A stretch of 60,776 nt of DNA, the filler included, from Hausera hauseri (taxonomy: Eukaryota): assembly GCA_046269625.1 (NCBI GenBank). It is 11 parts of 11 records of this genome, joined end to end, with 100 filler letters (N's around TTAATTAATTAA, not from the genome) between each part and the next. Parts side by side here need not be neighbours in the genome. Positions count along the whole stretch, not along the records: positions 23,268 to 30,417 come from JBJURY010035557.1; 10 more parts are not named here. The stretch is one strand, 5' to 3'. Position 1 is the stretch's first letter. The number at the start of each line of letters is the position of its first letter. The notes under the pieces were generated by a model. The model did not search any database. It saw nothing but the letters and a program-made list of their open reading frames with translations, and was not told the origin of the DNA. Positions 1 to 40,253 of this stretch are shown here, in pieces. The position numbers and the translations under genes are program-made.

Positions 1-5
1 CTTAC

Positions 6-5869: not shown

Positions 5870-7757
5870 CTTCGTATGCCTTAAAGAATTTTCCAAAAGG
5901 CCTTATTATTGCAGTCAGTATTTTACATAAAAACCTAGTCAATGTAAATATTTCATACCCATTAATTACTGCTTGGATGACTGCTTTAATCATCTGTATT
6001 TGAAAATATATCGCTAAAAATCCTGATGCAGCTTGTCCGAAGATTAAAAATCATCACAAAATTTTGTATAGTATTTTTGTTGTTACTTGCTGATAATGGT
6101 TTACGCCGAGTAGGGATTCCCATTTAGCCTGATATCGTGTATCGCCTACTACTGAGGCCATGGCTCGGTTTAATTCATATGTTCGATGTCTCGGAAAAGC
6201 GAGGAACTGTCTGAAAGCTTTCAATTTCCTTAGGTCTGTATATTCCTTTTGACGAAGTGTCTTGAAATTTATCATCTGTAATTCCTTTCGCAAGATTTGT
6301 TCTTGCTAATTTATTTGGGGCGGCAGTAATGCCTCCATTTGGCAAACTAACCCAGTCTGTTTCACTACGCCTAAACATGGACTCTCCTAAGCTCGCCTTA
6401 CAATCTCTAAGGATGGTTGGCTGGGTCGCGTTGTCCAGTAACACTCTTGTCAACGGTGTAGCTAACCTGTGAGTATTTTGATAAATGACAGGAAGTTCCT
6501 GAATGTAGCGTTTTTCTTCTACGTTAATGGGTACATCTCTCTTTTCGCATTCATAGGTTAGCAGTACTTTACCTGTGACCCGATCGAAAATCCACTCTCT
6601 CATAGGTATTATTGGGGAAGCCAATTCTGGGTTTGCATATATAAGAGCCATTTTAGTCCTCATGATTTCAGTATCTAATTTGAAGTCATTCATTATCATT
6701 GTGTTATATAATTCCGTTATTCCGACTTGTTCTTTGTAATAGAAGTAATTGTCTCTATTTTTCAGATAGTCCTCCATTCGGACATCCTGAATTTTTAGTT
6801 TGTAAGTTTTTGCATTTATTTCTGTTTCTTCCACGAAAAATGCCTCGTAGTTAGGGGCAAACATCACTACATCACAACGAGAGATCATCTCTTTTTTAAT
6901 AAAGTTCAGTCCATGTTTATCTGAGATTAATATAGTAAGTGTAGGATGTTCCGATATATCCTCGCGCATCCTTGAGTTGGTATCCGATTTATCCACATAT
7001 TTCTTTCCGGTAGTTTGATTAAATTTCAGTTCCTTAACTTTGATAAAATTACACCTTCTTCCAGAAGGTAGTTCCCAGATTATAACAGAACTTCTAAAAG
7101 CACAAGTTCCATCTTGTAAATAACACTTCTGATTCTCAGTGTATAACTTAGTGACATTGTGGAACATTACTTTTTGTGATCGCATCTCTGATTCGTAGAA
7201 ATCCGCGAATACCATATTTGATAGTAATCCTTTTCCGGTGTCATATTCTGCTCCGTAACTATGTCCACTATGCATATCTAACCTTCCGGCCACTACCTTC
7301 TATGCTCTAATAATTTTTCCCGGTTGCATTTCTAATTCTATACTATCCCATTGTACTCTCCCGGTCTCCTTGGCATGTTTACAGTGCTGGCGTTCTAAGT
7401 TCATAGGAATTAGAGGAATTTTCGGCTTGATTATGAAGAATGTCCATGTACTAATCCACAGTGGAAAATGCTACGTGATCGCCTCAGCATGCATTCCATT
7501 ACATCTAACGATATCAGTTCTTGTTGTTGGTGCAAGAAATAATTTTTCTCTCTTGTTTCCAACTTGTGTGGCCTAGCATCTTTGCACACTTCTAGATCTA
7601 TCAGGGAATATCTCTGCCCTAGTTTAAACTTATCGCAGTGGTAGACGGTAAGAGCGCTTATGTGTTTTATTAGCATCATCAAGTTGAGTAGACTGATTAC
7701 CAAATTTGATTCATTTTTCCAATAATCAACATCCGCTGTTGTTAAGTTACATAACAT
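5870..7757 (-). pseudogene. env: Chuvirus-like (class III/gB-type) envelope glycoprotein of copy A, frameshifted
   Basis: Signal-like LVISLLNLMMLIKHISA, then LTVYHCD...YSLIDLEVC, ECMLRRSRSIFHCG, TPLTRVL, KGIY..KEIESF/RQFLAFP, and TM region FLIFGQAASGFLAIYF..MIKAVIQAVING. Spread over ORFs 7431-7757, 6175-7293, 6054-6293 and 5613-5993. Confidence 0.8.
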
Positions 7758-7794
7758 ATCGTATATTTTATTCCCGGTCCTTCTGTCTTCTTCC

Positions 7795-8180
7795 TTGTCA
7801 AACAGTCTTGACCAATTTACTTTTCAGGCCAATCTTCTTGCTGCTTTTTGTGCCAAGCTTATGGCTCTATTGATTTCATTCTCTCGATTAGGGTTTATTT
7901 TGATAGCTAAGTAGAGTAATAATTTTCTCAATTCATCATTGGTGTTTTCTACCATGATCTTTTCGATTATCGATTCATCGGTTAAGTTACTTTTTGACAG
8001 TTTAAAACGTGAACTTCTTATCATTCTGGCTGCATCGAATATTACCTTTTCTTCATCATCTAGTACATCACCTCGAAGGCTCGAATAATTTACAATTCGT
8101 ATTAAATTCTTCACTAACTCACTTAATTTCTCATTGTTTGTATTGAGAGTCGCAATCGTCATTTGCCTCAGTTCTCTAAT
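7795..8180 (-). pseudogene. Helical Bcl-2-like domain of copy A (divergent)
   Basis: DESIIEKIM..DELRKLLLYLAIKI..NRENEINRAISLA..RRLA*KVNWSRLFD aligns with the Bcl-2-like region of copy B (…IKRIGGWDRLFD). Confidence 0.45.
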
Positions 8181-8424
8181 CAATTCTCCATTATAGTCCA
8201 CTTTTTCTCGCGTTTTCTTAGGCTTACCAACTGGGCCTGTCGGACTTTGGCCCCTAGCGGTTAGTTCACTCAGTGGTACTAAATTCATATCGTATTGTTC
8301 CTTGCCTTCATCCGTTTGTAAATATTCGAAATACATTGCAGTATCTAAAACTCCCATAATCTGTCCCACGCACTGTTTTGACTTTACCTTACGTGTGGCT
8401 TCCTCTTTTGTTTGCTGGTTAGCT

Positions 8425-16075: not shown

Positions 16076-16084
16076 ATTTCATCA

Positions 16085-19000: not shown

Positions 19001-22000
19001 CGTACTTTCATTCATTCGTTCCATCTTTCTTTCGTTCTTTCGTTCCTTCGTCCATTCGTTCTTTCCTTCATTCGTTCGTTCCTTCTTTTGATCGGTCCTT
19101 CTTTCGTTCGTTCTTTCTTTCGATCATTCCTTCGTTCGTTCGTTCGTGCATTCGATCGTTTCTTCGTTCGTTCATTCATTCCTTCGTTCCTTCGTTCGTT
19201 CGTTCCTTCTTTTGATCGGTCCTTCTTTCGTTCGTTCGTTCCTTCGTTCTTTCCTTTGTGCGTTCGTTTCTTCATTCTTTTATTCCTTTGTTCATTACTT
19301 CATTTATTCCTACGTTTGTTCTTTCTTTTGTTCGTTCTTTCCTTTTTTATTTCATTCCTTCATTCGTTCATTCCTTCGTTCGTTAACTCCTTTGTTCCGT
19401 CTTTTATTCATTCGATCGTTTCTTCATTCGTTTGATCCTTCGTTCGTTCGTTCCTTCGGTCATTCTGTCGTTCATTCGTTTGTTCCTGCGTTCGTTCATT
19501 CATTTTTTCGTTCCTTCGTTCATTCGTGCTTTCTTTCTTTCTTTCGTTTGTTCGTTTCTTTGTTCGTTCGTTCCTTCATTCTTTCATTCCTTCGTTTATT
19601 TGTTCGTTCATTCTCTCGTTCCTTCTTTCGTTCGTTTTTTCGTTTGTTTGATAGGTCAATCTTTCATTCGTTTCTCTTTTCGTTCGTTCTTTCCTTCCTA
19701 CGTTCCTTCCTTCTTTTGTACGTTCCTTCATTCGTTCGTTCCTTCCAACATTCGTACCTTCTTTCTTACTTTCCGTCGTTCAATCATTCTTTCGTTCACA
19801 CTTTCGTTCGTTCCTTCGTTTCTTCGTTCGTTCGTTTGTTCTTTCGTTCATTCCTTCGTTTGTTCTTTCTTTCATTCGTTCGCTCCTTCGTTAGTTCGGT
19901 CCTACCTAAGTTCATTCCTTCTTTCATTCGTACTTTCATTCATTCGTTCCATCTTTCTTTCGTTCTTTCGTTCCTTTGTCCATTCGTTCTTTCCTTCGTT
20001 CGTTCGTTCCTTCTTTTGATCGGTCCTTCTTTCGTTCGTTCTTTCGTTCGATCATTCCTTCTTTCGTTCGTTCGTGCATTCGATCGTTTCTTCGTTCGTT
20101 CCTTCATTCGTTCCTTCATTCGTTCGTTCGTTCGTTCGTTCCTTCTTTTGATCGGTCCTTCTTTCATTCGTTCGTTCCTTCGTTCTTTCCTTTGTCCGTT
20201 TGTTTCTTCATTTTTTCATTCCTTTGTTCATTACTTCATTTATTCCTACGTTTGTTCTTTCTTTTGTTTGTTCTTTCCTTTTTTATTTCATTCGTTCATT
20301 CGTTCGTTCGTTCATTCCTTCGTTCGTTCTTTTTTCATTCGATCGTTTCTTCATTCGCTCGTTCTTTCGTTCGTTCATTCCTTCGATCGTTCCTTCATTC
20401 GTTCGTTCCTTCATTCGTTCGTTCTTTCTTTTGATCGGTCCTTCTTTCGTTCGTTCCTTCCTTCGTTCTTTCCTTTGTCCGTTCGTTTCTTCATTCTTTC
20501 ATTCCTTTGTTCATTACTTCATTCATTCCTGCGTTCTTTCTATCTTTCGTTCGTTTTTTCCTTTTTTATTTCGTTCCTTCGTTCGTTCATTCCTTCGTTC
20601 GTTTATTCCTTCGTTCGTTTTTTTTTCATTCGATCGTTTCGTCATTCGTTCGATCTTTCGTTCGTTCCTTCCTTCGTTCGATCGTTCCTTTCTTCGTTCT
20701 TTCCTTCGTTCATTCGTCCTTTTTTTCGTTTCTTCCTTCGTTCTTTCATTCCTTTGTTTGATTTTTCTTTCGCTCTTCCAACGTTCTTTTCTTCTTTCTT
20801 TCGTTCCTTCCTTCTTTCATTGTTTCGTTCGTTCTTTCGTTTGTTCGCTCCTTTCTTTGTTTTTCATTCCTTCGTTCGTTCCATCGTGCATTCAACAGTT
20901 TCTTCGTTCGTTCCTCCATTAGTTCGTTCCTTCGTTCTTTCTTTCCTTCGATCATTTGTTCGTTCATTCATTAATTCCTTCGTTCATTCCTTTAGTGGTT
21001 CGTTCCTTCGTTCGTACCTTCCTTCATTCGTTCCTTCCTTCCTACGTTTTTACTTCTTTCTTTCGTTTTTTCGTTCATTCTTTCGGTCATTCGTTCTTTC
21101 ATTCGTTCCTTCATTCATTTGTTCATTTGTTCGTCCTTTCCTTTGCTTGATTGGTCCTTCTTTCGTTCGTTCTTTCTTTCCTTCGATCATTCGTTCGTTC
21201 ATTCATTAGTTCCTTCGTTCGTTCATTTATTAGTTCCTTCGTTTGTTCCTTCATTCGTTCGTTCCTTCGTTCGTACGTTCCTTCATTCGTTCGCTACTTT
21301 CTACGTTTTTTCTTCTTTCTTTCGTTCTTTTGTTTTTTCATTCGTTCGATCGTTTTTTCGTTCCTTCGTTCGTTTTTTCATTCGTTCGTTCCTTTATTTG
21401 TCCTTTCCTTCGTTTGATCGGCTTTCTTTCGTTCGTTTCTTTGTTCGATCGCTCCTTCGTTCGTTCCTTCCTTCCTACGTACTTTCCTTTGTTCGTACGT
21501 TCCTTCATTCATTCGTTATTTCCTACGTTCCTTACTTCTTTCGTTCGTACTTTCATTCGTTCTTTCTTTCCAACGTTTGTTTCTTCTTTCTTTCATTCCT
21601 TCGTTTGCTCATTCCTTCGTTCATTCTTTTTTTCGTTCTTTCGTTTCTTCGTTCTTTCGTTCCTTCGTTCGTTCCTTCATTCTCTCGTTTTTTCTACGTT
21701 CTTTCCTTCTTTCCTATATTCCTTCACTTGTTCCTTCGTTCCTACGTTCGTTCCTGCTTTCTTCCTTTCCTTCTTTCGTTCATTCCTTCGTTCGTTTGTT
21801 CCTTCTTACATTCGTACCTTCGTTCGTTCCTTCCTACGTTTGTACCTTCTTTCGTTCATACCTTCATTCGTTCCTTCCTTGCAGTCTTCGCTCCATCTTT
21901 ATTTCATTTTTTCGTTCGTTCATTCTTTCGCTCGTTCTTTCATTCCTTCGTTTGTTTTTTCGTCCGTTCGTTCCTTCGTTTTTTCATTCCTTCATTCATT

Positions 22001-23167
22001 CCTTCATTCAATCCTTCGTTCGATCGTTTGGTCGTTCTTTCATTCGTCCCTTCGTTCAACATTCCTTCTTTCGTGTGTTCCTTCTGTCGTTCGTTCCTTC
22101 ATTCTTTATTTCCTTCCTACGATCGTTCCTTCGTTCCTCCATTCTTTCGTTCCTTCTTTCCTTCGTTCATTCGTTCCTTCTTTCCTTCGTTCCAACTTTC
22201 TTTCTTTCCTTCTTTTATCCTTTCCTTCTTTCGTTTGTTCCTATGTTCGTTCTTTCGTTTCTTTGTTCGTTCATACTTTTGTTCGATTGTTCCTTCGTTC
22301 GAACCTTCATTCTTTTCTTCCTTCCATCTTTCGTTTTTTCTTTGTTCCGTTCCTTCATTCCTTTGTTCCTTTGTTCGCTCGTTCGTTCGTTCGTTCCTAC
22401 ATTTTTTCCTTCTTTCGTACGTTTCTTCATTCGTTCCTTCGTTCTTTCGTTCGGTTCTTCGTTCATTCTTTCGTTTATTCGTTTATTTCTTCGTTCTTTC
22501 GTTCCTTCGTTGCTTTATTCCTTCATTTATTTCTTTGTTCCTTCGTACCTTCGTTCGTTCCTTCATTCAACATTCTTTCTTTCGTTTGTTCATTCTTTCC
22601 TTCGTTCGTTCTTTCCTTCGTTCGTTCGATCCTTCGTTTGAACGTTTCTTCTTTCGTTGTTCGTTGATTCGTTCTTTCCTTCATTCGTTCGTTCCTTCAT
22701 TCATTCATTCGTTCCTTCGTTCTTTGATTCTTTCGTTTGATCGGTCCTTCGTTCGTTCGTTCATTCTTTCTTTCGTTTCTTCGTTCACTGTTTCCTTCTT
22801 TCGTTCGTTCCTTCGTTCTTTCGTTTATTTATTCGTTCTTTCCTTCCTTCGTTTGTTCTTTCGTTCTTTCATTCATTTCTTGGTTTGTTCCATCCTTGGT
22901 TCGTTCGTTCCTTCGTTCGTATTTTTGTTCATTCGTTCCTTCCTTTGTTCATTGCTTCGTTCTTTCGATTATTTATTCTTTCTTTCTTTACTTCATTCGT
23001 TCGTTCGTTCGTTCGTTCATTCGTTGTTTCCTTCGTTTGTTCGTTTTTTCGTTCTTCCTTCATTCGTTTGTTCTTTCGTTCTTTCTTTCATTCATTCGTT
23101 CGTTCGTTCGTTCGTTCCTTCGTTCGTTCGTTCGTTCGTTCGTTCGTTCGTTCGTTCGTTCGTTCGT
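16085..23167 (+). repeat. ~7-kb degenerate (TTCG/TTCC/TTCT/TTCA)n array with internal N100 gap (18872-18971)
   Basis: Strong 4-nt periodicity, pyrimidine-rich top strand, pure (TTCG)n at the right end. Confidence 0.98.
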
Positions 23168-24117
23168 NNNNNNNNNNNNNNNNNNNNNNNNNNNNNNNNN
23201 NNNNNNNNNNNTTAATTAATTAANNNNNNNNNNNNNNNNNNNNNNNNNNNNNNNNNNNNNNNNNNNNCGTTTTCATAAGTGCTTCTGCGTAAAAAATTGT
23301 TTCGCAAATGTTCATGTTGCAATGTTTGATGAGTATAAAATTGTTTTACTATATTTGGTGATAGAACTTAGGCAAAATATGGCGATTTCCGAAAATGTAA
23401 AAAAAACCGAAAGCATTAATGTGCAAAAGTTCAGTAAATTCCTCGACTAAGGGTTTTGTAAATTTGATGCATTTGTGAAGATGAAAACTTTTCGGATCAA
23501 ACGTTTCTTGAGATCTTCGTATTCCTTGTTGTGCACAAAGCCTAATGCTTAAAGCATACATGAAATGGAACTGGGATATTTGTTGGCATATTCATTAAGA
23601 AAGCTAATCTGTCTGGAATGCAAGCGTTCTTCAACATTGGAGTACAGCGCACAATAGGTCATTCATAAGTTGTTCTAACCATATAATAAAGAGTAATTAC
23701 CAAAATAAGAACTCAAGAAATAGAAACAAAGTCGCAAAGCATCATCCGGAGAAATAAAAAATAAGTTGGATATTGAAGAGCACAAAAGAATTAGTAAGTT
23801 GGAAAATGAATAGACAAAATAATAAAATAGGTATTTCGATGAAAACACTTTGCCGGTCATAGTATTTAAGATCAGACACATGGGATGAATCGTTTCCTAA
23901 TAAATCAGTGTTAACCCTCTCAGCTCCCCTCAAAAGCAATTTCGGATTCTTGGTGCTATACAATATTGAATATTGTACATAAATGCCTAATAGTTGTGTT
24001 AGGTTTAATTATTATCGATTGTCGCGCAATATTAACTACTCTTATTGGAAGATATCCGTTTTTAATGGGGCTAATGCTACAAGCAGCCTTTATTCCGTAT
24101 CTAGTACTTAAATTATT

Positions 24118-27100
24118 CTATGGTTCGAAAAGCATTACTCCATTGATAATATTTGGTGAATATCCTTGTATTAAATGTTCACTTGCGGGTTTCAGAATAA
24201 TTCCTTCTGGGATGATAACAACATTTTTACGGAGTTTTATAGTTGGAATTACTAACTGTCCAGTAGCTAAATTAAGATATCTACCTATGCATTGACGTTG
24301 TAAATCTAGTCCAATTATTACTTCTTCAATTAATTTATCAAATACCTTAAAGGTGTGTTTTAACCTTTTATTATAAATAATAATAGAAGTTGTCCAATAT
24401 CCAACTGGAAGTAGTTTATCTCCCCAACCTGATATAGTCGCTTTGTCAGACTTCCTTGGTGGTTCTACTTCTGTTTTAAATCTTTCAGGTATACTATCTA
24501 ATCGAATGATTGAGTCATCGCTCCCGGTGTCTACTAAGGCAAGTATATCCCAATCATCATGAATAGTAACTAAGGTATACGGACGTTTTGATCCCATTTT
24601 ATCCTTACTTGTTCGTAAAGCACACATGTGATTGAAGGAAGGTATTATAACATCAAGGTTTCCTTCACTGTTTGGATTGTTCACATTTCCATTATCATCT
24701 GGGTGTATTTCGGTTATAGTTACGTTTGTAGTTGGCTCTTTTAATTGCTTTCGTAATTGTTTATATTTAATATAGTCGGCTCTACTTCCTGAATATAACG
24801 CATCTACTTGTCTTTCTATCAAACTTTCAGTTTCAATTCTATTTAACGGTGGTATTGGTAGTCTCTTGTCTTTATATTCTCCAGCATACATCATTTTCGC
24901 CTGATGAGAGGTAAATGAAACGTTATGATATTCGACAGGATTATGAGCTCGCTGAGGGACTAACTGATAATCATTTGCTGCTATATTTTTCATAAACTTC
25001 ATTATTACGCTTCTATGCGTTGTTCGTACTTTAGGATTTTTTTTAACCTTTTTTTGTCGTTTCTTGCCAATTGTTACTTTTGTACTACCGTCAATATTAT
25101 CATCGTCATTCCCCTCACGATCACGCATACATTGCGCCATAAATGCATGTTGTACGCACTTCGCTAGCGGAGGACAAAGTGCTGTTAATAGTTTTTTTGA
25201 ACAGCCAAATAATTGAAAATTAATAAATCCGCTAGTAATTTGAGAGATGATGGTCCTCAAAATTTGAACTATAAAGTAGACAGCTAAGAATCCTGATGAT
25301 ACTTGGCCAAATGTCATTAGACCTCCCCACAACTTTTTAAATATCGTTTTTGCCGCTTTTGTAAAATGGTCCGGACTCAAAATGTTTTCCAAATTCGTTC
25401 TCCCATCTACTGTGTCCGTTATTTTTTGAGTGTATGACACCACTAATCTCTGGATTTGTTTTGGAAACAGTAAGTAACGTCGTAATTTTTCCATGCTAAC
25501 AGCGTCATATAGACCTCCTTGAAAAAAATTGACATTGTTATCGAAAATTAATTTCTTTTTAAACGCCAACATTATCAGTTTTTCAGGAGTTATCACTTTT
25601 GTACGAGATGGCAACGTTACCCAATGATCATGACCTATCTTAAATAATGGTGCAATATTTCTAATACATTCCTTTAGAATAGTTGGCTCTTCTGATGTTA
25701 ATAGCATCACCCTGGTTATTGGTGCAACATACCTCAATTTTCCAATATACTGTACTGCAATTTCGTTGGTACACGCTGTTGTATCCATTACCGGTACCTC
25801 CACTTCCCGACATTTAAATGTTAGTAGCCCTTCGCCTGTAGTTCTTGCAAATATCCCTTTTCCTTTAATTGGTAATATTGGTGTATCTATTGATGGATTA
25901 TGTGCTGCAACGGTAACTCTTAGGGCCAGAAGATCCTGCGAAATTAAACAATCATTTTGAATCATTTCTTTATATAACTGGTATTGATTATGAATCATAT
26001 AATGAAACAGGTAATCCATCTTTCCGTTGTAATATATAATGGGCTTTACTTCGGTAGGATGAATTTGTCTATTAGCTTTGTCTATTTCTTTTTCTGTGAT
26101 ATATATATCCTCTATATTCGTAGCATATACCTCCGTTTTACATTTATTTACTAGCTTCTTTCGTATTAATCGTATTGCATCTTGAGCTGTAGACATAAGA
26201 ACTGCTGGGGTTTCAATTTCTGCTAGCTTTTGTATCTCATCGTTTTGTCGCTCTTCGTGATCCCTTACTGGTTTTCCAAATCTTATTCCTTTCGTAATGT
26301 TAAATTTTACTTCCTTGAGGAAGGCCAAATTACACGTCGTAACACTGATTTCCCACGTAATTACTGAGTCAGTCGTATAACAGTACCCTCTACCATATGA
26401 ACAATCAGGCTTTACCATCAAATTTAGAGTATCCGCTTCGAAGGTTATCTCTTTATCCATTACTGTCCACGTATACAAATTTTGAACAACTAATCGGGAT
26501 ACTCCGTCTACCGTTTCACCTGTACATCCACCATCGGAATCCAACACACCCACCTCATTGATTGTTAAATATTTAATTCCATTTACAATAGTCTGAATTT
26601 CTACCTTGGAATTAATCCTTAATTTCCCAGTTTTTATTGCTTCCTTACAATCATCAGGTAAGACGCGTTGTGGTTCATCTGGTGAAGCCATTAATACATT
26701 AGTCGAATGATAATGCATTTTTCCACAATGCCACTTTTTGGTTTGCTTCGTGAGTCTACATTCGAACGCCTTTTTGCGGAAGAATTTATTTTCCTGATAT
26801 ATATAATATGTTGTTTCCGGTTCCGCAATTAACTTGTCTGGCTCTGCATCCGGACATTTCTCTAAGTCAACAAGTGAATATGTAGCACCGACTTCAGGAT
26901 TGTCACAATCAAATGCTTGAATGCTTTGTCCTTGAGGGATTTTCATAAAAAGGAATATTATAAGTAGGAGGCCCAACATTCCACTAATATCTACTTTTGA
27001 CGGTAATTTAAACATTCCTTCTAGATATCGAGTAGTTTCTAATGTTTTCCTTATTAGACTTTCACTAGTCTTTCGTTCTGTCTTCGATCTCCTCTGGTGG

Positions 27101-27144
27101 CCTAATTGTGTGTTGGAAATCAAATAATCTATCCCATCCTCCAA
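24118..27144 (-). CDS. Envelope glycoprotein-protease fusion ORF (signal 26923-26979; G to ~25140; cytoplasmic linker; protease ~24255-24590; dUTPase-like spacer continuing past the TAG to ~23975)
   Basis: MLGLLLIIFLF..SIQAFDCD..YSLVDLEKC, ECRLTKQTKKWHCGKMH, YVAPITRV, GGLYD..MEKLRRYLLFP, LWGGLMTFGQVSSGFLAVYFIVQILRTIISQITSG..LFGCS..LLTAL (chuvirus-G-like pattern); uninterrupted to ALVDTGSDDSII...VIIGLDL. Confidence 0.88.
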   Translation of the reverse strand: MEDGIDYLISNTQLGHQRRSKTERKTSESLIRKTLETTRYLEGMFKLPSKVDISGMLGLLLIIFLFMKIPQGQSIQAFDCDNPEVGATYSLVDLEKCPDAEPDKLIAEPETTYYIYQENKFFRKKAFECRLTKQTKKWHCGKMHYHSTNVLMASPDEPQRVLPDDCKEAIKTGKLRINSKVEIQTIVNGIKYLTINEVGVLDSDGGCTGETVDGVSRLVVQNLYTWTVMDKEITFEADTLNLMVKPDCSYGRGYCYTTDSVITWEISVTTCNLAFLKEVKFNITKGIRFGKPVRDHEERQNDEIQKLAEIETPAVLMSTAQDAIRLIRKKLVNKCKTEVYATNIEDIYITEKEIDKANRQIHPTEVKPIIYYNGKMDYLFHYMIHNQYQLYKEMIQNDCLISQDLLALRVTVAAHNPSIDTPILPIKGKGIFARTTGEGLLTFKCREVEVPVMDTTACTNEIAVQYIGKLRYVAPITRVMLLTSEEPTILKECIRNIAPLFKIGHDHWVTLPSRTKVITPEKLIMLAFKKKLIFDNNVNFFQGGLYDAVSMEKLRRYLLFPKQIQRLVVSYTQKITDTVDGRTNLENILSPDHFTKAAKTIFKKLWGGLMTFGQVSSGFLAVYFIVQILRTIISQITSGFINFQLFGCSKKLLTALCPPLAKCVQHAFMAQCMRDREGNDDDNIDGSTKVTIGKKRQKKVKKNPKVRTTHRSVIMKFMKNIAANDYQLVPQRAHNPVEYHNVSFTSHQAKMMYAGEYKDKRLPIPPLNRIETESLIERQVDALYSGSRADYIKYKQLRKQLKEPTTNVTITEIHPDDNGNVNNPNSEGNLDVIIPSFNHMCALRTSKDKMGSKRPYTLVTIHDDWDILALVDTGSDDSIIRLDSIPERFKTEVEPPRKSDKATISGWGDKLLPVGYWTTSIIIYNKRLKHTFKVFDKLIEEVIIGLDLQRQCIGRYLNLATGQLVIPTIKLRKNVVIIPEGIILKPASEHLIQGYSPNIINGVMLFEP

Positions 27145-28987
27145 TTCTTTTTATGTCTACGGATAAATAATTCTTTGTAATCTCGGCAGCAACATCGAGC
27201 CCCATCTCAATTTCTTCTCTATTTTGAGCGGAATTTTTTACTCTCATTAAAAGAAATACCAAAATTGTGATCACTCTATCTTTCGTGAATTCCCCAGTTT
27301 TTATCCACCTTTGAATGACGTCTCCATCATCTATGGAATCTATTTTATTTGGTAATTGTTCATTCAGAACAACTTGTTTCAATCGTTGCAAAGCCCGTCG
27401 TAACTGTTCTTCAATATCTAAATCACACGGTTTCTCACATAATTGAATTGCTTCCTCTTCAAACAACACATTATAAATCTTCCATAATATGGACCTAATT
27501 TGTCGGATCTCTGGATCCATAATCTTAATTTCGCTTTTGCGTAACCCTCTGGTTAAGGTATCCACCTTAACCTGTTGTAATAAATTTTTCGGCGGTCTCC
27601 CTGGTGGTTTTTTATCAGTTTGTGTTTGATGGTGCTCAGTTTCTAAATCAGTCAAGTCTTGTACTTCCGAAAATACTTGCAGTGGTTCTGGGGTGATTAA
27701 TTCTTCAGACTGATGTTCCGGTCCATTCCTCACCTTCAATGGTCTCACTACTTCAGTCAAGGCCAAAACACTTTTAATTTGTTTTTCTAGCTCTTTTTCA
27801 TTGTCTTTGTTAGTTTTCCTATGTTCATCTATATGTATAATGACAATTTCATCCGCGTCCATTTCTGGTACGATACCCAATTCTGACCATGTAATACTTG
27901 CATCATCTGTCTTTCTACCCATAAATTCCACAGTTATAGTCCCAGTATTTTCATTCCCATAATATTTTCTATAGTAACTCTCGACTGTTTGGAGTGTCTG
28001 CCAAATCGTATCCAATGGATTTATCATAATTTCCAAATCATCACTTTTTGATCCAATTCGCATTTGAAATTTGACTAAAATTTCTTTTTGACAATTAAAA
28101 GTTTTAAACTTATCCTTATGTGAAAACATTTGTAGTATTAATCTCGCCATGTCCCTTCTCGGACAATTATCCGCAGCCTGCTGTACTAAAAATGGTCTAA
28201 TTTGCAAAAATCTTGCCCTTTCATCAGTAACCCATTCACGTATTTTGTATAATTGGTTTAAGCCGGCCGTCATTATTCCATCATCTTTCTCGTTTCCTTT
28301 AATAATTTCTACCAATGTTTTAAAGGCATTTTCCTGCCATGCTATATCCAATTCATAGTTGATTTCGCGACTTCCTTCCAACGATATCGATGGAGTGTCT
28401 ACATCTTCTTCTAATACTAATATACTTATGTCATTCTCTTGAACTTTCACGTCATTTCTTTTAACTACCTTTTGAATTAGGTGTTCCTCTAATTTATTCT
28501 TTAAGGATACAGCCTGATTATCTTGAATATTCTTCAGCCTTTGAAATTGATTCTTAACATCATCCCGTTCAAGCGTTAACCGTTTTATTTCTAGAAGCAA
28601 CTGGTCATTCGACATGTACAATTCCTGGGAACTATTTAAATCTAAAGGTACATCTAAATACTCCTTTATTTCTGTATCATTTATTTCCGGAACATTCAGC
28701 ATTTGTCGATGATTCATGATTTCGTCTTCGACAAATACCAAATTGTTACTATATATCTCTGAATCAGACTGCATAATAGATAAATTACTGGTTCCAGTTA
28801 TCAGCGGGCACACCTTCGCCAAATGTCCTGATTGACCACAATTAAAGCAATTTTTATGTTTCTGCAATACTGGTTGCTGTACTAACGATTGGGTTGTCAT
28901 TAATTGCTGCACTGGCATTTGCAATGGACATCTTTTAGATGTGGCCCCACTGACCACAAGTATTACATTGTTTCGGTGTTTGAACAT
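27065..28987 (-). CDS. Gag C-terminal extension: CCHC knuckle, coiled coil, Ubl (27827-28084), AT-hook-like (27584-27613), Bcl-2-like (27116-27520)
   Basis: CFNCGQSGHLAKVC; ILVKFQMR..LEIMINPLDTIWQ..ITVEFMGRKTDD..TWSELGIVP..IVIIHI; KKPPGRPPK; GEFTKDRVITILVF (BH1-like) and YLSVDIKRIGGWDRLFDF (BH2-like). Confidence 0.75.
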   Translation of the reverse strand: MFKHRNNVILVVSGATSKRCPLQMPVQQLMTTQSLVQQPVLQKHKNCFNCGQSGHLAKVCPLITGTSNLSIMQSDSEIYSNNLVFVEDEIMNHRQMLNVPEINDTEIKEYLDVPLDLNSSQELYMSNDQLLLEIKRLTLERDDVKNQFQRLKNIQDNQAVSLKNKLEEHLIQKVVKRNDVKVQENDISILVLEEDVDTPSISLEGSREINYELDIAWQENAFKTLVEIIKGNEKDDGIMTAGLNQLYKIREWVTDERARFLQIRPFLVQQAADNCPRRDMARLILQMFSHKDKFKTFNCQKEILVKFQMRIGSKSDDLEIMINPLDTIWQTLQTVESYYRKYYGNENTGTITVEFMGRKTDDASITWSELGIVPEMDADEIVIIHIDEHRKTNKDNEKELEKQIKSVLALTEVVRPLKVRNGPEHQSEELITPEPLQVFSEVQDLTDLETEHHQTQTDKKPPGRPPKNLLQQVKVDTLTRGLRKSEIKIMDPEIRQIRSILWKIYNVLFEEEAIQLCEKPCDLDIEEQLRRALQRLKQVVLNEQLPNKIDSIDDGDVIQRWIKTGEFTKDRVITILVFLLMRVKNSAQNREEIEMGLDVAAEITKNYLSVDIKRIGGWDRLFDFQHTIRPPEEIEDRTKD

Positions 28988-30146
28988 ATGGTAGAGTTAC
29001 AACTGGAGCTTGTATAAGCAACGGGCGTGATTTAGCGATGTGACCAAACTGTTTGCAGTTATAAAATTGAATTTGACATTTAATATTAACATTTTCACGC
29101 TCCATAACTGCCACAATATTAGATGAACCTTGTGCGTTCAACGATCGTAACGGGTATTGATGTGTCGGTCTTACATTACTAATCGGTTGTGTCATCTTCA
29201 TTCTATTAGGAGCTGCGCCCGTAGCCATCGCATTAGTTAATGGTGGACCATTTGGTCTCATCATAGGGAAAACCACTGATGGATTAGACTGTGGAACCTG
29301 TTGTTGAGGTGTCCTAAATTCAGGTCTCGTTGTCCATTGTGGCTGGGCATAAACCCATTGTTGTTGTTGCCTTTGAACTCAAGGTCTTTGAACCCCAAAT
29401 TGTCCTGATCGTATTGGTTGGTTGATCCTACGATTTCCACAATATTGATTGGATCTTACATTCATAATTGGTGCACGCAATATTACAGATGTATTGGCGT
29501 TATCTACAGGTTTTATCACAGCATTTCCCGGGATAGTCTTCTGAATTATTTGATTCATTTTAGCATCTACATTCTTCTATGCAATAGCCCGTTTCACCAA
29601 GTCCCCAAAGGTAAAAGCTTCACTTTCAATAAGACGACTTTGAACCTTCGGGTTCCTTAATCCCGTTATGAAACAATCTACTAAGATGGGTTCCGTCTCA
29701 AACACTTTTCTTTCTCTTGAAGATTCGTTTTTAATTCTATCTTCCGTTTCTAGTGCCAGTTTGTAACGCTTCACTAATGCTTGTAAAGCTAATGCAAACA
29801 TATTAACCGATTCACCTACTTGCTGAGTCCGTGATCTTAAATTTCGTAGACGTGCGTTAGCTGACGAATCCGGATCAATATACTTTTTTAATTTTTCAAT
29901 AACTTCCTTCAATGTAAAATCTTCCTTATCTTCAATCTGAAGATATGCCTGCAACGCGACTCCTAAGTACGTGACTAGTTTCCCAATTTTCTCATTATCC
30001 TTCCATTCCAGGCCATATGCCTGAGCATCTTACATGAGAATAAAATCGTCGAATCTAGTGGGATCACCAGCATAACGTTGCAAATTTAATCCAGCATACA
30101 ATTGAGTCGTATTCTTCTTAAAATCCGTTTCTGAATCTTTACTCAA
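28935..30146 (-). pseudogene. gag: Retrotransposon Gag (capsid, Q/P-rich linker, two degraded CCHC knuckles)
   Basis: LQRYAGDPTRFDDF..AYGLEWKDNEKIGKLVTYL..RTQQVGESVNMFALAL..FITGLRNPKVQSRL; FYNCKQFGHIAKS and CNTCGQWGHI/SKRC. One frame with premature stops. Confidence 0.85.
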
Positions 30147-30316
30147 ATCTTTCCTTAACCAAGAATCAAACAAATATATAATTTTAAAATCCGTCCTGAC
30201 CAATAAACCCTTCTTCGTAAATCAAATACTTTCAAAATCAAGTAGACAAATTCAAATTACAACAATCTTGGAGAAATAATGGAATCTATTTATTTTAAAA
30301 TATTTCAAACAATACT

Positions 30317-30412
30317 CAATAGACAAGTAAACTTCAACAAAACCGTTCACTTATAGTTACTTCAAATAACGTTCAATAGACAAGTAAACTTTTGATAAAA
30401 CTGTTCACTTAA
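30317..30412. repeat. Two-copy ~57-bp direct repeat in the 5' leader of copy B
   Basis: CAATAGACAAGTAAACTT..AAAAC.GTTCACTTA at 30317 and 30374. Confidence 0.8.
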
Positions 30413-33400
30413 TATTANNNNNNNNNNNNNNNNNNNNNNNNNNNNNNNNNNNNNNNNNNNNTTAATTAATTAANNNNNNNNNNNNNNNNNNNNNNNNNNN
30501 NNNNNNNNNNNNNNNNNAATTCATTCACTTTCGTGTCTTAAATGAATAAAAATGTCTTCAGATTATTATGCTCATTTATGAATTTTGAGAATATGGTTGT
30601 TTTGTATATATGGCTGACAACACGAACAACAAATTCAATGACACAACTTGATAAGTTATTATTTGTCTCATAGCTGCAACATGAAAATTTTAACTGAAGT
30701 AAGTTGTAGCGCTGCAGTATAAGACACGACCACGGTTTCCGGCAAAAATGGCCACCGATAAATACCCCTTAAACCGATGTGGGCTTTTGAGTGTGGTCGC
30801 CGCTCTCCGGTCCTTGCTCGTTGGCGATCAAAGTGGTCAATCATCAAACTCAAAGTTTCAAGAGAACAACGCATCAAAAAGTGATATTTAAATTTGCAAT
30901 ACTTTTCATTTTTTTATTCAAAGCATCAAACCCACGTCAATACAAAAATTTCGATAAGAAATCGCTTTCACGTTACGGAAGACAAAAACGCATTATTTGA
31001 GTTTAGCTTCCAAAAACATTTTTGCACCAAATCCTTTCCGTTAATCATAATTCCCGATCAGATCAACTAAAAATTTTTATCAGAATATGTCGATCCGAAT
31101 TCGTTAAGTATATCAGAAAACATCACGGATTTTCATACAAACATAAGTTCAAAGAAAGAACTCGTAAAATCGTCTGAAAATTCATAAAATAAACTATATT
31201 TTTGCTCAGATTCGTATATTTATTACTCCTCAGAAATTCAAATTCTCATTTCTTCTCCTCAAATCAGTAAAAATCATTCATTTAATCGAGGGTCTGATCA
31301 TCAACGAAAGTTAATAATAAAAGTCTTTAAACAAATTGTAAATATAATTTTTCCATTAGTTTATCGGTAGAGTAAAATTGCTTTTTGTGATTTGAGTTAA
31401 AGTAATACGAATAAGTTTTGTTGGTGTTTCGAAATACCCCTTGTACAACAATGCATCCATATCATTTAACAAAGGAACCTTTTTTATTTAATAAGTCCAA
31501 ATCGAATGAATCCTGGTAAATATCGAGCATAATATATCCAACAAATTTGTTTAATGCGTTAAAAGCTTTGAAATCCAGAAAAGTTTCATTTAAATTAAAA
31601 AAACTATTTACAGATGTCTACAACTATTAAAACAAAAGTTATTGAGCTTTCTTCCAATCTGTTCTTTTATTGAATTTCAAAATTATATAGCATTATGCTA
31701 TAATATATATACACACAGATGACTAGTGCTGAACTTAATTAATAAGGCCATTATACTGTAGAGCAGTACGATAAAAAATAAAAGATAAAGTTACAAAATA
31801 TCATCATTTATATTTTGCTAATATATGTGGAGTGTACCATATTGTAAAACAATAAAATAGTGAAATATCTTCGTTTTCCAATTGCTGAAATGCACCAAAT
31901 TGAAAACCAGATCTACCGCATTATCCACAAAGAATCTTAATGAAATCTGTTACTGTAAAGAGATCGATGTACGCCTGTAGTATGCTGTTCCAAGTGAATG
32001 CCACACAGATTCCATTATAAATCAATGCATAAAATGCCCTTTTAACATTTTCGAATTATCAAACACAACTAATTTATTGTTGTCCGCTACCAAATCGTAA
32101 CAAGAATGATTTTCGAAGAGAATTTGAATGCCTTATTTCTGTCAGAAAATCCATGAACTGTTACGGTACTTTGCGGCCGATTTCGGTTGGCTAGTCAATT
32201 TTCTTTGACAATTACAAATTTGTCTTTGTCGCTCGAATGTGGAGAATTTCGCATTTCCTTCTTCATTTCACAATAAGATTCCAAAAATAAATTTCCAAAC
32301 ACAAACAGTAATTTAAAACTATTTGAAACTGTTTGGAAATACTTCGTGACACAAATGTAACATGAGGTACAAATGTGTATACGACTATAGCCGGTTAAAA
32401 TGTATTGCGTATTCTTTATTGTTCTACTGTCGTCGATTATCTAAAATAGCGTTTACCATCTAATATAGTTTTGTTACTAACTCCCAATGTAGGCATTTCA
32501 GATTGATGCAGTTTTGTTAAACAATCCTCGAATGATGCAGCAGAGGAATCGTTTATGGGATATTTATTGGGAACGTTTGTAATTTCTGGGTTGATTGGTA
32601 GTTTAACCTGTGAGATCGGTGGAAACTCGACTATCAGAACTATAATGGGCGGTTGTTTTGATTGGGAACTCCACAAACGACCGCATCCTCAAACGAGAGA
32701 AATCGGATCAGACCTGCAAAACGATCGAAGCGAGGTCGTCGTCCCTGACTGTGCCCGGCTAGAATGGGCCAAAGGGGGACAACGCGATCTGGCACCACAC
32801 GGACAGTCTAAATAATGAGGATGCCAGAAATATTCTACGAATAACCTCACTGAAAAAATCTTATCCAAATCTGACAATTGTCGTCCAACCGCTGCAATAT
32901 GATAAAAAGTACAACATTCTAAACATTTGCAGTTGAAATAAATAAAATGGAAATGGCATAATCTGCTAGTGAAATAAATTTGGGCTTTTGTCCAAGAGTT
33001 GTTTAGTTCCAGGCCATACGACGTTCATATCAAATTTGTTCTCTCTGAGATACAAAAAGAAATGTCAATTATATCGAAATACAAAATGCCTATAGATGAA
33101 TGCATATCTAGATGGACTAAAAATGCAATTGTATCGAGTAAAAGTCTCATCGAGTTTATACAGAATGACATTTCAGGAACTGAATGTATTTTGCTACTGG
33201 AGTAGGTAGAAGGGAGATCACTGCTTCAGTCACCCCTCCAAGGGAAGCAGAAATGAAGTGGTTCGCGGATGAGTCATGGGGTAAAAAACGATACAAACAC
33301 GGTTAATAAGGCATAGATAGGAGGCACACAGTCATTAAAGTGATACACACAATCACGCGTACTGTATGGATTCGGAGTGGTTAAAAAATTTGAATTTCGC

Positions 33401-33571
33401 GAGCAAAAATTTATTTGTTTTAATTTCGGTTTTGGCGCAGTGTGATTGGTCGGTTTGTTTAAATTTTGGCAGCGAACAAAGCATTTTCTGCTGCACATTG
33501 AGTTTCACTATTCCACCCTACTTTATTTTAATTTTTTTTAAATACCGCTGTGTAAGTGTCACTTATGAAAA

Positions 33572-33844
33572 ATGTCTCAGCCATATATCTTGGCATCATT
33601 TAAATTGAATGCTCTTTCTGCTGTAGAATATTTTAATACTGTGGAAAAGTTGTGCGTACAATTGAAAAACATACAAAATAGAAGAATGGAGTCAAAGTTT
33701 GTATGTGTAGTATGTAAAGAAAATAAGGTAGATACGGTATTCCTAATGTGTGGCCATCTGGTATTATGTCAGATATGTTCAAAGTTAAGTCATTGTCCTG
33801 AGTGTAAATGCGCTATAACTGGAAGTGTACATATTTACTATTAA
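33572..33844 (+). CDS. Small protein with C-terminal IAP-type (C3HC4) RING finger
   Basis: CVVCKENKVDTVFLMCGHLVLCQICSKLSHCPECKCAITGSVHIYY*; AATAAA overlaps the stop. Confidence 0.85.
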   Translation: MSQPYILASFKLNALSAVEYFNTVEKLCVQLKNIQNRRMESKFVCVVCKENKVDTVFLMCGHLVLCQICSKLSHCPECKCAITGSVHIYY

Positions 33845-33896
33845 TAAAAAGACAGGAAAAACTTTTATTGTTATAACAAACTATTTACATTCAAAT

Positions 33897-34698
33897 TGAA
33901 TAATGTCTATATGCGACACTTACTTTTTCTGGATCCACATATTTCATCATCAAACGGATCCAATGCTTTCTTTTCTGATCCCATTGTCATAAGCTGATGA
34001 TTTGTGGTCCAATTCGCTCCTGGTCCACCATAGTCGCACAACCGGTTTCGTATGCTTGTAAGTAGCTGTTGAACTGTAAATCAGTCTGTTTCAGATTAAT
34101 ACACTTGCATTTGAGGACTGATTTGCTTTGGATTTTCAATGCGTAGGATTTCGGCCGTAGGAAAATACCCTCTTAATACTCGACATACCCCTTACTCTCA
34201 ACCTTAAATTTGCCTATTATCGCTGCGAAACGAGTTTAGTACAGTGGATCACTCTTATCATAGTTTGACGTATTTAACTGCTCGTTTGCTATCATTGCCT
34301 ATAAGAATTGTGATTTTAAGTCAACACCATGGCATTCAAGGACTAAACTGTCTGTGTCACCAGCAATAATATTAAATTCACAATTAAACTGTTGCTTATA
34401 CGTCTCAAACTCGATATAATTCAGCTCATACACCCGTAACTTGGATAGATCAAGTACGGCCTGACCGATGTATGAGAGTCTGTCTAAAGTAACTATGTCC
34501 TTATCGAGGAGTACGGCAACAAAGTCATCGGCTATAATAATACTTTCCTTAAACTGTGCCTTACTTGCGTATGTAACAAGTTTTCTTGCCTTATTGCACA
34601 GTCTTAAATTTGACCTTTTCAATAAATTCTCAACAGTCTTACCATGTAGACTATTATTCTTTAACTTAAAAAAGTCCTTCTCAAAAGAATTATTTGCT
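33897..34698 (-). pseudogene. Polinton/adintovirus-type pPolB, C-terminal fragment
   Basis: FEKDFFKLKNNSLHGKTVEN, YIGQAVLDLSKLRVY, AGDTDSL, IGKFKVE, FLRPKSYA, KKALDPFDD; several stops. Confidence 0.9.
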
Positions 34699-34798: not shown

Positions 34799-37774
34799 TA
34801 TCTAAAAGAGAGCTTGACAGTCGTACCTCTGCTGGTTTACCCAAATACCAACAAGGAATACGTATTATACACCGACGCATCTGACTTTGCCGTAGGTGCA
34901 GTATTGGTGCAGAAAGACAGTGAAGAGACGGTACAAGGAAAGAGAGTCGACAGGGAGAAACCAATATACTTCTTGTCACATAGATTGACCAAATCCCAAC
35001 GCAAATGGTCGGTGACTGAAAAAGAAGCATATGCAATCCACTTTGCACTGCAGAAATTGAACTTTTATTTGCATAATAGCAAATTCACTATTAGAACAGA
35101 TCATATGCCGCTAAAAGCCATGATGAAAGCCGACGTACAAAACAAAAGAATACAAACCTGGATATTAAATTTACAAGGATACAACATGAACATTGAATAC
35201 ATTCCAGGATTGCAAAACACAATTGCAGATCTTTTGTCAAGACTACCAGAGAAATGTAATAATTATGAAGATCCACATGAAGTAAACGATGAAGAAGGTA
35301 CCCCAGAAATAGATGAGCACACACTTCAAATTTCAGCTGTTAGTACCACTGAAAAGAAAGCAAACGAGACAGGAGAATCAGAAACAGAATCCGGTGACGA
35401 AGATAAGAACAGAATAAATATGAAAACCGAACAAATGAAAGATGAAGAATTAAAGAACATCATAGAAGATCTACAATCAGGGGTAGAAGAGAAGTTAAAG
35501 AAGTGGAAAAAGTTCATGCTGGATGATGAAGAACTATACAGGGTAGGCAGTGAAGGGAAAAGAAATTTTCAACTATGTATACCCCAACATTTGAAAACTT
35601 GGGTAATGCAGGAACATCATGATAAAATGGGACACCTAGGTAGAGACAGGACGGCAGAACTGATCAGCCGGAAATACTACTGGAAAAACATGCTGTCAGA
35701 AATAGGAAACTATGTAAAGAATTGTGAACCGTGCAAGTTGAGAAATATGGAAGTGCTAAAACACCCTATCCAGGAGCCGGAATACGCAAACTTCCCTATG
35801 GAGAAAGTGAGTCTCGACTTATCCGGACCTCACCCATTGACAGTATCTGGGAACCAACATATTCTGCACATAGTGGACATTTACAGCGGTTGGCCCGAGT
35901 TATACGCGGTGCCTGATAAAACTGCAGAGAATATTGTTGATATTCTAGTAGGAAAGTTTATAACGAGATATGGATGTCCTAAAATCATCGTGACGGATAA
36001 CGGCAGAGAGTTTGTGAACCAGGCAATGAGAAACACACTAAAAGAATTAAACATCAAACACGTACGAACGTCCGTATACAATCCAGGCGCCAATGGAGTG
36101 AATGAAAGGCAACATTCTACACTGTATGATGTCATCTCAAAGTATACTAAAGACCAACCCAAGGAATGGGATATGCATTTGAGTAAGGCAGCAATGGTAG
36201 TTCGAATCATGGAAAATGGCAGCCGAAAGTATTCTCCTTATGAAATGTTATTTGGAAGGGAGCCGACTTTACCAATTGATAACCTACTGAAGCCAAGATT
36301 AAAATACCAAGGGGAAGAATTTCACAAATACCAAATCCAAAAGTTACATGAGATTACAGTGAAAGTCAGCAGAAACGTAAGAGAGGCCTTTCAAAAGAGG
36401 AAAAGGTATAGTGAACCAAAGACTGTCCAACAAGATTTCGAGATTGGAGATAAAGTTTATTATCGCAAGAACAAGAAGAGCTCGAAACTTGAAAACAACT
36501 GGGTACCAGGTTACAAGATCCTAGAAAAGAAAGGACCGATTACATACGTGGTAGTGAACCAACAAACAGGGCATGAAGCCACAACCACCACAAGTCTACT
36601 TAGAAGAGACAATCGAACCTTCCCAGAGGAACCAAAAATAGAAAATAAGAACAATATGCGAAAGTCGAAGTATGTCGTACCACCGAAAAGTGAAAACGAT
36701 TCAGAAACATCAAGTCAAACTGAAGAAGAAACATCTGATGAAGAGAGTGATAGTGATACGAGATATGAAATAGCGATTCCATATCAAGTCGGAAGAAAAA
36801 CGCAAAAGAGATGTGAAATCGAACCAAAAACAGATAAGGAAACGAACACTGAAGCACCTTACCAAAATACAAGGGCAGCGGCTAGGAAAAGATTTGAAGA
36901 AGCTAGGGCCCAACAATTAAAAAGAAGAAGAGCTGTCCGAAGCAACTCATCGGAAGAGAGCGACATCCCATACTTAGAAAGGAAAAGACGATTAGAAGAT
37001 AGGGAACGAAGAGAAGCTCAGGAAACACAAGGGGACGATGAAGAAACACAGAATGACTTGGAAAGCAGCAGCTCGGAAACCTTAGTGGAAGACACCGAAA
37101 CTGAAACATCCGAACTAGACCAAATGGTCAAAAGACTGAAGAGGTTAAGAGATTCGAGTACATCAACTGAAGACGAACCTAGAGCCAAAATCACCAGACA
37201 AGCAGAACTGAGAAGAAAATATGTGGCTGAAGAAGCGAGAAAGAAACGAGAAAGGGAAAGAAGACAAGCAGAAACTCGAATCGAAGAAATACGAAAAACA
37301 ATAGATGGAAAAGACAAAGAAGTACAAGAAGTAAAAGCAGCCATAGGAAAATTAACCGAAGACAAAAAGGCAGTCGATATGAAAGTTAATGAGTTAAGAG
37401 ACAAAGTAAAAGAAGCAGAAAGCCAGTCGGCCCAACTGGAAAAAGAAAATGCTGAAAAAACAGAAATTATAACAAAGTTAAGGAAGCAGTTGGCAGAAAT
37501 AATTAGTCAAAAGGAGCCACCATGTATTGTAAGGGAGAAAAGTGTGAAGCATAATAAACAGAGAGAAGAAGAAGATATGGAAAATGAAGTTACAGAAGAA
37601 CGGGTATATGATAAAAGTCGTCCAAAAATAACAACAGAAGTGGAAGAGAAGCTACTGGGTATAAAACAACCTGAGCGAGCAATAGCGGTAGTAGAAAAAG
37701 CAGCGGGTAGGACAGAATTGAAAGATGATAGTGTCATGAAACTATTATTGCAAACGATGTTGAAGTTGGCGTAA
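34799..37774 (+). CDS. pol: Pol: RNase H + integrase with long acidic/coiled-coil tail (5' truncated by spacer)
   Basis: LYTDASDFAVGAVL, WSVTEKEAYAI, IRTDHMPL, IADLLSR; HHDKMGH..CEPC; SLDLSG, VTDNG, NGVNER; PGYKILEK. Confidence 0.95.
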   Translation, partial: YLKESLTVVPLLVYPNTNKEYVLYTDASDFAVGAVLVQKDSEETVQGKRVDREKPIYFLSHRLTKSQRKWSVTEKEAYAIHFALQKLNFYLHNSKFTIRTDHMPLKAMMKADVQNKRIQTWILNLQGYNMNIEYIPGLQNTIADLLSRLPEKCNNYEDPHEVNDEEGTPEIDEHTLQISAVSTTEKKANETGESETESGDEDKNRINMKTEQMKDEELKNIIEDLQSGVEEKLKKWKKFMLDDEELYRVGSEGKRNFQLCIPQHLKTWVMQEHHDKMGHLGRDRTAELISRKYYWKNMLSEIGNYVKNCEPCKLRNMEVLKHPIQEPEYANFPMEKVSLDLSGPHPLTVSGNQHILHIVDIYSGWPELYAVPDKTAENIVDILVGKFITRYGCPKIIVTDNGREFVNQAMRNTLKELNIKHVRTSVYNPGANGVNERQHSTLYDVISKYTKDQPKEWDMHLSKAAMVVRIMENGSRKYSPYEMLFGREPTLPIDNLLKPRLKYQGEEFHKYQIQKLHEITVKVSRNVREAFQKRKRYSEPKTVQQDFEIGDKVYYRKNKKSSKLENNWVPGYKILEKKGPITYVVVNQQTGHEATTTTSLLRRDNRTFPEEPKIENKNNMRKSKYVVPPKSENDSETSSQTEEETSDEESDSDTRYEIAIPYQVGRKTQKRCEIEPKTDKETNTEAPYQNTRAAARKRFEEARAQQLKRRRAVRSNSSEESDIPYLERKRRLEDRERREAQETQGDDEETQNDLESSSSETLVEDTETETSELDQMVKRLKRLRDSSTSTEDEPRAKITRQAELRRKYVAEEARKKRERERRQAETRIEEIRKTIDGKDKEVQEVKAAIGKLTEDKKAVDMKVNELRDKVKEAESQSAQLEKENAEKTEIITKLRKQLAEIISQKEPPCIVREKSVKHNKQREEEDMENEVTEERVYDKSRPKITTEVEEKLLGIKQPERAIAVVEKAAGRTELKDDSVMKLLLQTMLKLA

Positions 37775-37779
37775 AAGTA

Positions 37780-39783: not shown

Positions 39784-39900
39784 GAAATTAGGAAGGGTAG
39801 CTGAATTACAGTAAAGAATTGCCTTCGGGAAAAATGATTGTCGATCAGTGAAAAGAAAAAAATATTTCCCATTCGTGGTGGCGAATGGAAAATAATTTTT

Positions 39901-40253
39901 AAAAAGGAAAGGGGGCATGGTATCATCGATATTACACATCCTCCATCCAAGCATAGTGACACATAGAAAGAGAACGTTTACGAGAAAATCTCAGAAAGAC
40001 CCAGAATTTTTTTCTTGTCAGGAAGTTGTTCCTGATTACTTGCACAAATGTTGGGACTGGGAGACTAAAGATCAAACCCAAACCCGCGACTGTGTAGAGC
40101 GAAAGGTGTGTGAATGAGTATACTGTGGGAAGTTAAAAGGTTAAAGGAACCCACAGCGGGACGATGTACATCCAAACTGAGATGTCCATGAAGGATGAAT
40201 GCGATGGATGTGAGAGAAAAGGTAATTGTGCAAGGGATAAAGAGGACAGATAG
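39901..40253 (+). repeat. Polypurine tract (39901-39915) and beginning of 3' LTR (TG at 39918)
   Basis: AAAAAGGAAAGGGGG-CA-TG shortly after the env stop. Confidence 0.7.

Follow-up and report, generated by a model that had tools for sequence, protein, structure and literature searches.

A Predicted Bcl-2-like Domain Between the gag and env Regions of a Broken, Probably Burro-Type Retroelement in Hausera hauseri

Introduction

Large DNA viruses characteristically encode mimics of Bcl-2, and a C-terminal membrane anchor is present in many members of the Bcl-2 family. Among retroelements, the published cases found are those of planarian Burro, for which a function of the Bcl-2-like cargo was considered "worthy of experimental confirmation" (PMC6431247), and our literature searches retrieved no functional test of such cargo in a retroelement. 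Burro, also named GYPSM1, comprises giant gypsy-like LTR elements of planarians, which are described as encoding Gag, two or three CCHC knuckles, a SUMO-like domain, a BCL2-like motif (credited to Grohme et al. 2018) and a dUTPase-like domain, with env, a mononegavirus-like fusion protein, lying in frame between BCL2 and the protease (PMC6431247). According to the same description, Burro cargo includes MATH/TRAF, BIR and SUMO-like domains tied to ubiquitin signalling, and decaying Burro fragments with stops and frameshifts occur in Dugesia japonica (PMC6431247). In addition to Burro, "ancient errantiviruses" of the HSV/gB type with a GAG-ENV-POL order have been reported in Nematoda, Bryozoa and Platyhelminthes, the nine flatworm elements being from Macrostomum, Prostheceraeus and Schmidtea (PMC13524379).

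The DNA analysed here (the window) is a stretch of 60,776 nucleotides from Hausera hauseri (assembly GCA_046269625.1), made of several contigs joined by N linkers. The Bcl-2-like segment that is the subject of this report lies on the minus strand of the contig at 23268-30417 and had been proposed in a first-pass annotation as a Bcl-2-like domain encoded by a retroelement.

Organization of the Retroelement

In the direction of transcription, the gene order of the element is gag, zinc knuckles, a ubiquitin-like domain, the Bcl-2-like segment, a gB-type env and a protease (Table 1). The env (PF24664) sits between zf-CCHC and PF00077, that is, between gag and pol. The proposal that the segment is encoded by a retroelement was borne out by the matches to zf-CCHC, the Monjiviricetes fusion protein and the retroviral protease listed in the table.

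Table 1. Features of the element carrying the Bcl-2-like segment, and the candidate counterpart of that segment in a second element (positions of the window)
Feature	Position	Strand	Basis
Probable gag capsid region, stop-broken	29382..30146	-	Position before zinc knuckles and by eye
Three CCHC zinc-knuckle positions	28805..29063	-	PF00098 (E 3.5e-05 and E 0.0014); translations
Gag-frame ORF, 640 aa	27065..28987	-	Open-frame translation
Predicted ubiquitin/SUMO-like beta-grasp domain	27824..28090	-	Model and Foldseek
Predicted Bcl-2-like helical domain, ~135 aa	27116..27520	-	Pfam, predicted structure, motifs, selection
ORF of 965 aa, fusion glycoprotein in frame with retroviral protease	24118-27015	-	Pfam PF24664 and PF00077
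Hydrophobic Env leader (signal or anchor)	26938..26994	-	Hydropathy peak 2.19
gB-type (chuvirus/Monjiviricetes-like) envelope glycoprotein	25030..26970	-	PF24664 (E 9.4e-74)
Retroviral-type aspartyl protease, in frame with env	24292..24588	-	PF00077 (E 0.0003 / E 2.7e-05); DTG motif at 24531
Post-protease remnant with stop; element end, before RT	23962..24243	-	Second-element similarity and coverage drop
Candidate Bcl-2-like counterpart in second element, one internal stop	7755..8225	-	Helical stretch at same position

The probable capsid region, translated with X at its stops, gave no Gag match in Pfam at E ≤ 0.1. Two of the CCHC knuckles are damaged and lie in an upstream frame, and the third is intact and stands at the start of the 640-aa ORF; a scan for CCHC-like patterns recovered two of the three positions. 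Within this ORF, the knuckle is followed by a low-complexity or coiled region, the ubiquitin-like domain, a linker and, as the last element, the Bcl-2-like domain. A membrane segment was located in Env by hydropathy at approximately 25237-25302.

The ubiquitin-like domain was modelled as strand-strand-helix-strand-strand-strand with a mean pLDDT of 39.8. Its top Foldseek matches were the SSL7 beta-grasp domain (E 0.005), Bag1, SHANK3 SPN, Smt3/SUMO and the SUMO-like domain of Nip45; none reached E ≤ 0.001, and no Ubl family was matched in Pfam.

Neither end of the element is contained in the 7-kb contig, no pair of terminal repeats was found within 23268-30417, and RT and integrase are absent. 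The coverage by related contigs from run X1 drops near the element end from 113.8 to 20.7, reaching 0-0.9 below 23985, and because of this collapse the copy is considered to end before RT. The post-protease remnant (23962-24243) is weakly similar to the same position of a second element in the window (E 0.002) and has no Pfam match; it may be dUTPase-like, as judged by eye and by analogy with Burro. Env does not share the frame of the Gag-frame ORF, and gag carries stops. Broken and cut short before RT, this copy is no longer a working retroelement.

Evidence for a Bcl-2-like Domain

The first-pass annotation had quoted four peptides, described as BH4-like, BH3-position, BH1-like and BH2-like. 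All four were recovered in a single open minus-strand frame and in the order proposed, at 27511-27464, 27409-27374, 27295-27254 and 27169-27116. The all-helical character of the segment was likewise reproduced by a single-sequence AlphaFold model, which contains six helices of at least four residues and is of low confidence (pLDDT 47.8, pTM 0.38). The NWGR and GD signatures are degenerate, as had been noted: in the BH1 motif, Arg alone is retained (TKDR), with Trp and Gly replaced, and the BH3-position helix lacks the Gly-Asp typical of pro-death members. The GGW of BH2 is kept (GGWD within 27169-27116). The role of the NWGR motif has been described, and in the divergent viral protein ORFV125 the BH1 Arg makes a hallmark BH3 contact (PMC7719400). 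Since even ORFV125 keeps both Gly and Arg (PMC7719400), whereas the BH1 Gly is lost here, a canonical BH3 groove appears doubtful. Hydropathy showed no hydrophobic C-terminal tail for the Gag-frame ORF; the first hydrophobic segment after it, the Env leader, lies approximately 40 codons downstream of BH2 and, in this copy, in another frame.

Comparison with the PF00452 profile, a check that had been called for with the first-pass annotation and was run with Pfam, gave a divided answer. PF00452 was the sole match of the segment among 24,736 families (E 0.075, 14 bits), and trimming to 27116-27445 gave E 0.044 with a match that spans positions 10-100 of the 100 in the profile, but these scores of 14-14.8 bits stand against a gathering cut-off of 31.4 bits. 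The other 26 proteins of the same Pfam run, the 640-aa parent ORF included, showed no match to this family. Because the score is below the cut-off and the NWGR motif failed, the segment is named Bcl-2-like and not a formal member of the Bcl-2 family.

The structural check proposed at the same time, AlphaFold followed by Foldseek, was similarly mixed. Chains of the Bcl-2 family occupied ranks 1-16 of the search against the PDB and 38 of the 43 matches listed, a redundant set with many Mcl-1 entries, but the matches are weak (best E 0.35, rmsd 8-15 A) and come from the model with a pLDDT of 48. In a VIA-align search against 48,161 chains, catfish BAX ranked first (Z 6.1, rmsd 5.0, 117 residues aligned), tied with unrelated short helical proteins at Z 6.0; the Bcl-2 family made up 7 of the 50 matches listed, but 7 of the 8 with at least 98 aligned residues. 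These methods are not independent, since a single model underlies both structure searches and a single sequence underlies every method.

Other searches were negative. PDB sequence searches gave chance matches only and no Bcl-2, the best NCBIfam match was unrelated (E 0.052), the BFVD library of viral structures offered nothing clear, and the ESM Atlas gave no usable match. For the domain within the ORF, none of 920 candidates reached E ≤ 0.01, and a search of 1.84 billion representatives gave 0 matches at E ≤ 0.001. Homologues of env were absent at near and longer lengths, and viral and metagenome contigs were likewise without relatives. These absences weigh little on novelty, because the collections searched are poor in animal repeats.

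Taken together, the claim of a Bcl-2-like domain stands on concordant, if weak, rankings by profile and structure, on purifying selection and on a published precedent, whereas every fold score remained below significance. The resemblance goes moderately beyond chance and, with the Burro precedent counted in, we consider it quite likely that the segment has a Bcl-2 fold.

Sister Copies and Purifying Selection

Sister copies of the element were taken from contigs of run X1 matching the 7-kb stretch; X1 may be the source sample and is not counted as independent support. Run X2, in which the share is small (0.05), was set aside as a guide to habitat or host. No RNA data set was among those listed, a result that carries no weight as to expression. 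A total of 1267 contigs was found, with 157, 242, 440 and 428 in the identity bands of 99% or more, 95-99%, 90-95% and below 90%, respectively, and this spread indicates an old, multi-copy family. The domain was covered at a summed depth of 80-103, comparable with the 72-458 seen elsewhere in the family. A host Bcl-2 gene split by an insertion was rejected as an explanation, as the domain is intron-free, in frame with the knuckle and the ubiquitin-like domain, and covered like the family's other parts.

At the best-supported 40 of 61 positions of the domain at which sister copies differ, 25 differences were synonymous and 15 non-synonymous, and none created a stop. Depending on transition bias, a synonymous share of 0.21-0.32 would be expected, so that the excess has a p value between 2e-8 and 7e-5 for these 40 positions. 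Within the same set, residues 60-135 carry most of the signal (17 of 23 synonymous, with a rough pN/pS of 0.09-0.15), and it is weak in residues 1-59 (8 of 17, p 0.02-0.21). The counts refer to positions and not to independent events, and they describe constraint while the family was active without fixing a precise ratio. The mostly silent differences indicate that purifying selection acted on the domain, above all across BH1-BH2.

Other Sequences in the Window

A second and more decayed env-before-protease element is present on the minus strand of the contig at 4114-10119 (PF24664 E 5.8e-16 and 3e-08, protease E 0.001). Its env is 26-34% identical to that of the first element, and its upstream region is unrecognised. 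At the position corresponding to the Bcl-2-like domain, the stretch at 7755-8225 bears a tryptophan (BH2-like) motif at its end and runs in frame into its own env leader. It has no Bcl-2 match in Pfam, and its identity to the domain is 18% (tblastn E 1.1). For this pair, which was chosen by position, the local score of 53 was reached by 14 of 2000 shuffles and the global score by 25 of 2000. The similarity weakly suggests that this stretch could be a counterpart of the Bcl-2-like domain.

Several further retroelements were observed. The third element (34799-40253, plus strand) contains RNase H, integrase and a long charged tail, followed by a 667-aa ORF at 37780-39783 that starts in a signal-like manner, contains heptad regions and has a hydrophobic segment near its C terminus; by eye it has the look of an F-type env, and it has no env match in Pfam. 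Two related gag-pol elements, 74-85% alike, occupy 48796-53904 (with RT and RNase H matches) and 54005-58353; they lie on separate contigs in opposite orientation, and their appearance as long inverted repeats arises from contig joining only. The minus strand of 44463-48695 contains degenerate pieces of host genes, namely RNA polymerase Rpb1 (E 1.6e-12) and an alanyl/threonyl-tRNA synthetase domain (E 0.0004), and downstream of them a DUF7041 gag-like ORF.

The remaining contigs hold other kinds of sequence. A degenerate T/C-rich tetranucleotide satellite of approximately 7 kb (15691-23167), which yields long spurious ORFs, is preceded by an endonuclease VII-like fragment (E 4e-05). At 33569-34698, a RING finger (zf-C3HC4_3, E 9e-10) adjoins a DNA polymerase B fragment (E 0.017), and the whole is possibly a Maverick or viral remnant. 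A broken DNA transposase of the Tc5/CENP-B type was found at 42581-43458. The dynein heavy-chain pieces at 59646-60233 lack introns and include a stop. Two long overlapping coiled-coil ORFs of no clear family on the minus strand of 1-4013 probably represent a single host gene whose frame is broken.

Possible Functions and Alternative Explanations

The best explanation of the locus as a whole, which we consider reasonably probable, is that a Bcl-2-fold domain carried by a Burro-type element would, in working copies, have restrained the death of host cells while tethered to a membrane. The domain would probably have been captured long ago from a host gene, and working copies would most likely have produced a single Gag-Ubl-Bcl2-Env-Pol polyprotein, by analogy with Burro. 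In such a polyprotein, the Env leader could enter the membrane and serve as the C-terminal anchor of the tail-less domain, which might then be freed by the protease of the element or by signal peptidase. The domain would bind pro-death proteins of the host (Bax/Bak-like or BH3-only) through a remodelled groove containing the BH1 Arg and would thereby restrain cell death in the cells that make the element. An anti-apoptotic function through a BH3 groove, taken by itself, is plausible at slightly short of even chances.

Bcl-2 folds can also act in other ways. The poxvirus Bcl-2-fold proteins A46, A52, B14 and K7 dampen innate-immune or stress signalling and are not known to do so by BH3 binding. 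That the present domain, together with its ubiquitin-like neighbour, damped innate-immune or stress signalling through a surface other than the BH3 groove is a serious rival, albeit on balance an unlikely one. It would fit the loss of the NWG of BH1 and the GD of BH3, and also the association of the MATH/TRAF, BIR and SUMO-like cargo of Burro with ubiquitin signalling (PMC6431247). What speaks against this signalling role is that purifying selection peaks over BH1-BH2, with the BH1 Arg and the BH2 GGW kept, although these helices also form the core of the fold.

A structural role and a chance resemblance are less likely than a role in signalling. Bcl-2 folds are membrane-active, which counts in favour of a particle-serving module, matrix-like or membrane-shaping, that would be membrane-proximal and connect the Gag precursor with the Env leader as particles are assembled. 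The position before the Env leader is also fixed here, in Burro as described (PMC6431247) and perhaps in the second element of the window; on the other hand, the main text of PMC13524379 describes GAG-ENV-POL elements with no mention of such a domain, so that it may be dispensable for the layout, and we regard a particle-serving role as very improbable. Hardly more credible is an unrelated helical domain in which a central hydrophobic helix and a GGW motif happen to look like Bcl-2. This would agree with fold scores that all fall below significance and with the lack of homologues in the large-scale search, but profile, Foldseek and VIA-align all put Bcl-2 first, and a BCL2-like motif has been published at the same position in the same gene order (PMC6431247).

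A wider hypothesis, in our judgement an unlikely one, holds that the Bcl-2-fold domain has been a fixed part of flatworm GAG-ENV-POL elements since ancient times and is no peculiarity of planarian Burro. Two lineages with env proteins approximately 26-34% identical would have retained it just ahead of the Env leader, possibly in a parasitic flatworm as host. Remodelled by the loss of NWG and GD, the domain would act as a modulator of death or immunity that makes no use of a canonical BH3 groove and has the Env leader as its anchor.

To the published cases, this copy adds one that is compact and highly diverged and whose domain shows a signal of purifying selection, which supports the idea of functional cargo. 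Moreover, it offers a small, unbroken domain of 135 aa for assay.

Comparison with Known Systems

The element is probably of Burro type, as judged by its gene order against the published description. The two share the order of gag-CCHC, SUMO/Ubl-like domain, BCL2-like domain, env and protease, the Ubl and Bcl-2 domains being predicted here (PMC6431247). Unlike the giant Burro, the present element is compact, with approximately 640 codons from the knuckles to env, and no Pfam match to MATH/TRAF, BIR, ankyrin or midasin was found between gag and env. It is called Burro-type, and not Burro, because the giant size and the extra cargo are lacking. Burro is described as a continuous polyprotein (PMC6431247); in the present, broken copy env and protease are in frame with each other and the Gag-frame ORF is not, and in the second element of the window the BH2-like motif runs in frame into env.

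Like the GAG-ENV-POL errantiviruses, the element has a gB-type env (PF24664) between gag and pol (PMC13524379). Unlike the element studied here, those in the main text of PMC13524379 come with no mention of apoptosis cargo, the string "bcl" having 0 occurrences in that text. Troyka was rejected, since it is described as encoding no env (PMC12440569).

In comparison with cellular and DNA-virus Bcl-2 proteins, the domain differs in being part of a retroelement ORF, in having no tail anchor of its own, and in the loss of the BH1 Trp/Gly and the BH3 Gly-Asp. On the other hand, its predicted helical order and central hydrophobic helix resemble those of the Bcl-2 family, including BAX, Mcl-1, A1, sponge BHP2, ASFV A179L and M11L (PMC11209288, PMC7719400), and the BH1 Arg, the BH2 GGW and the top rank of Bcl-2 in profile and fold searches are features in common. 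The novelty implied by the first-pass annotation was not supported, as a BCL2-like motif flanked by a SUMO-like domain and by env in the same frame is already on record for planarian Burro (PMC6431247). The locus is a compact, divergent and broken example of this published layout and does not represent a new kind of system.
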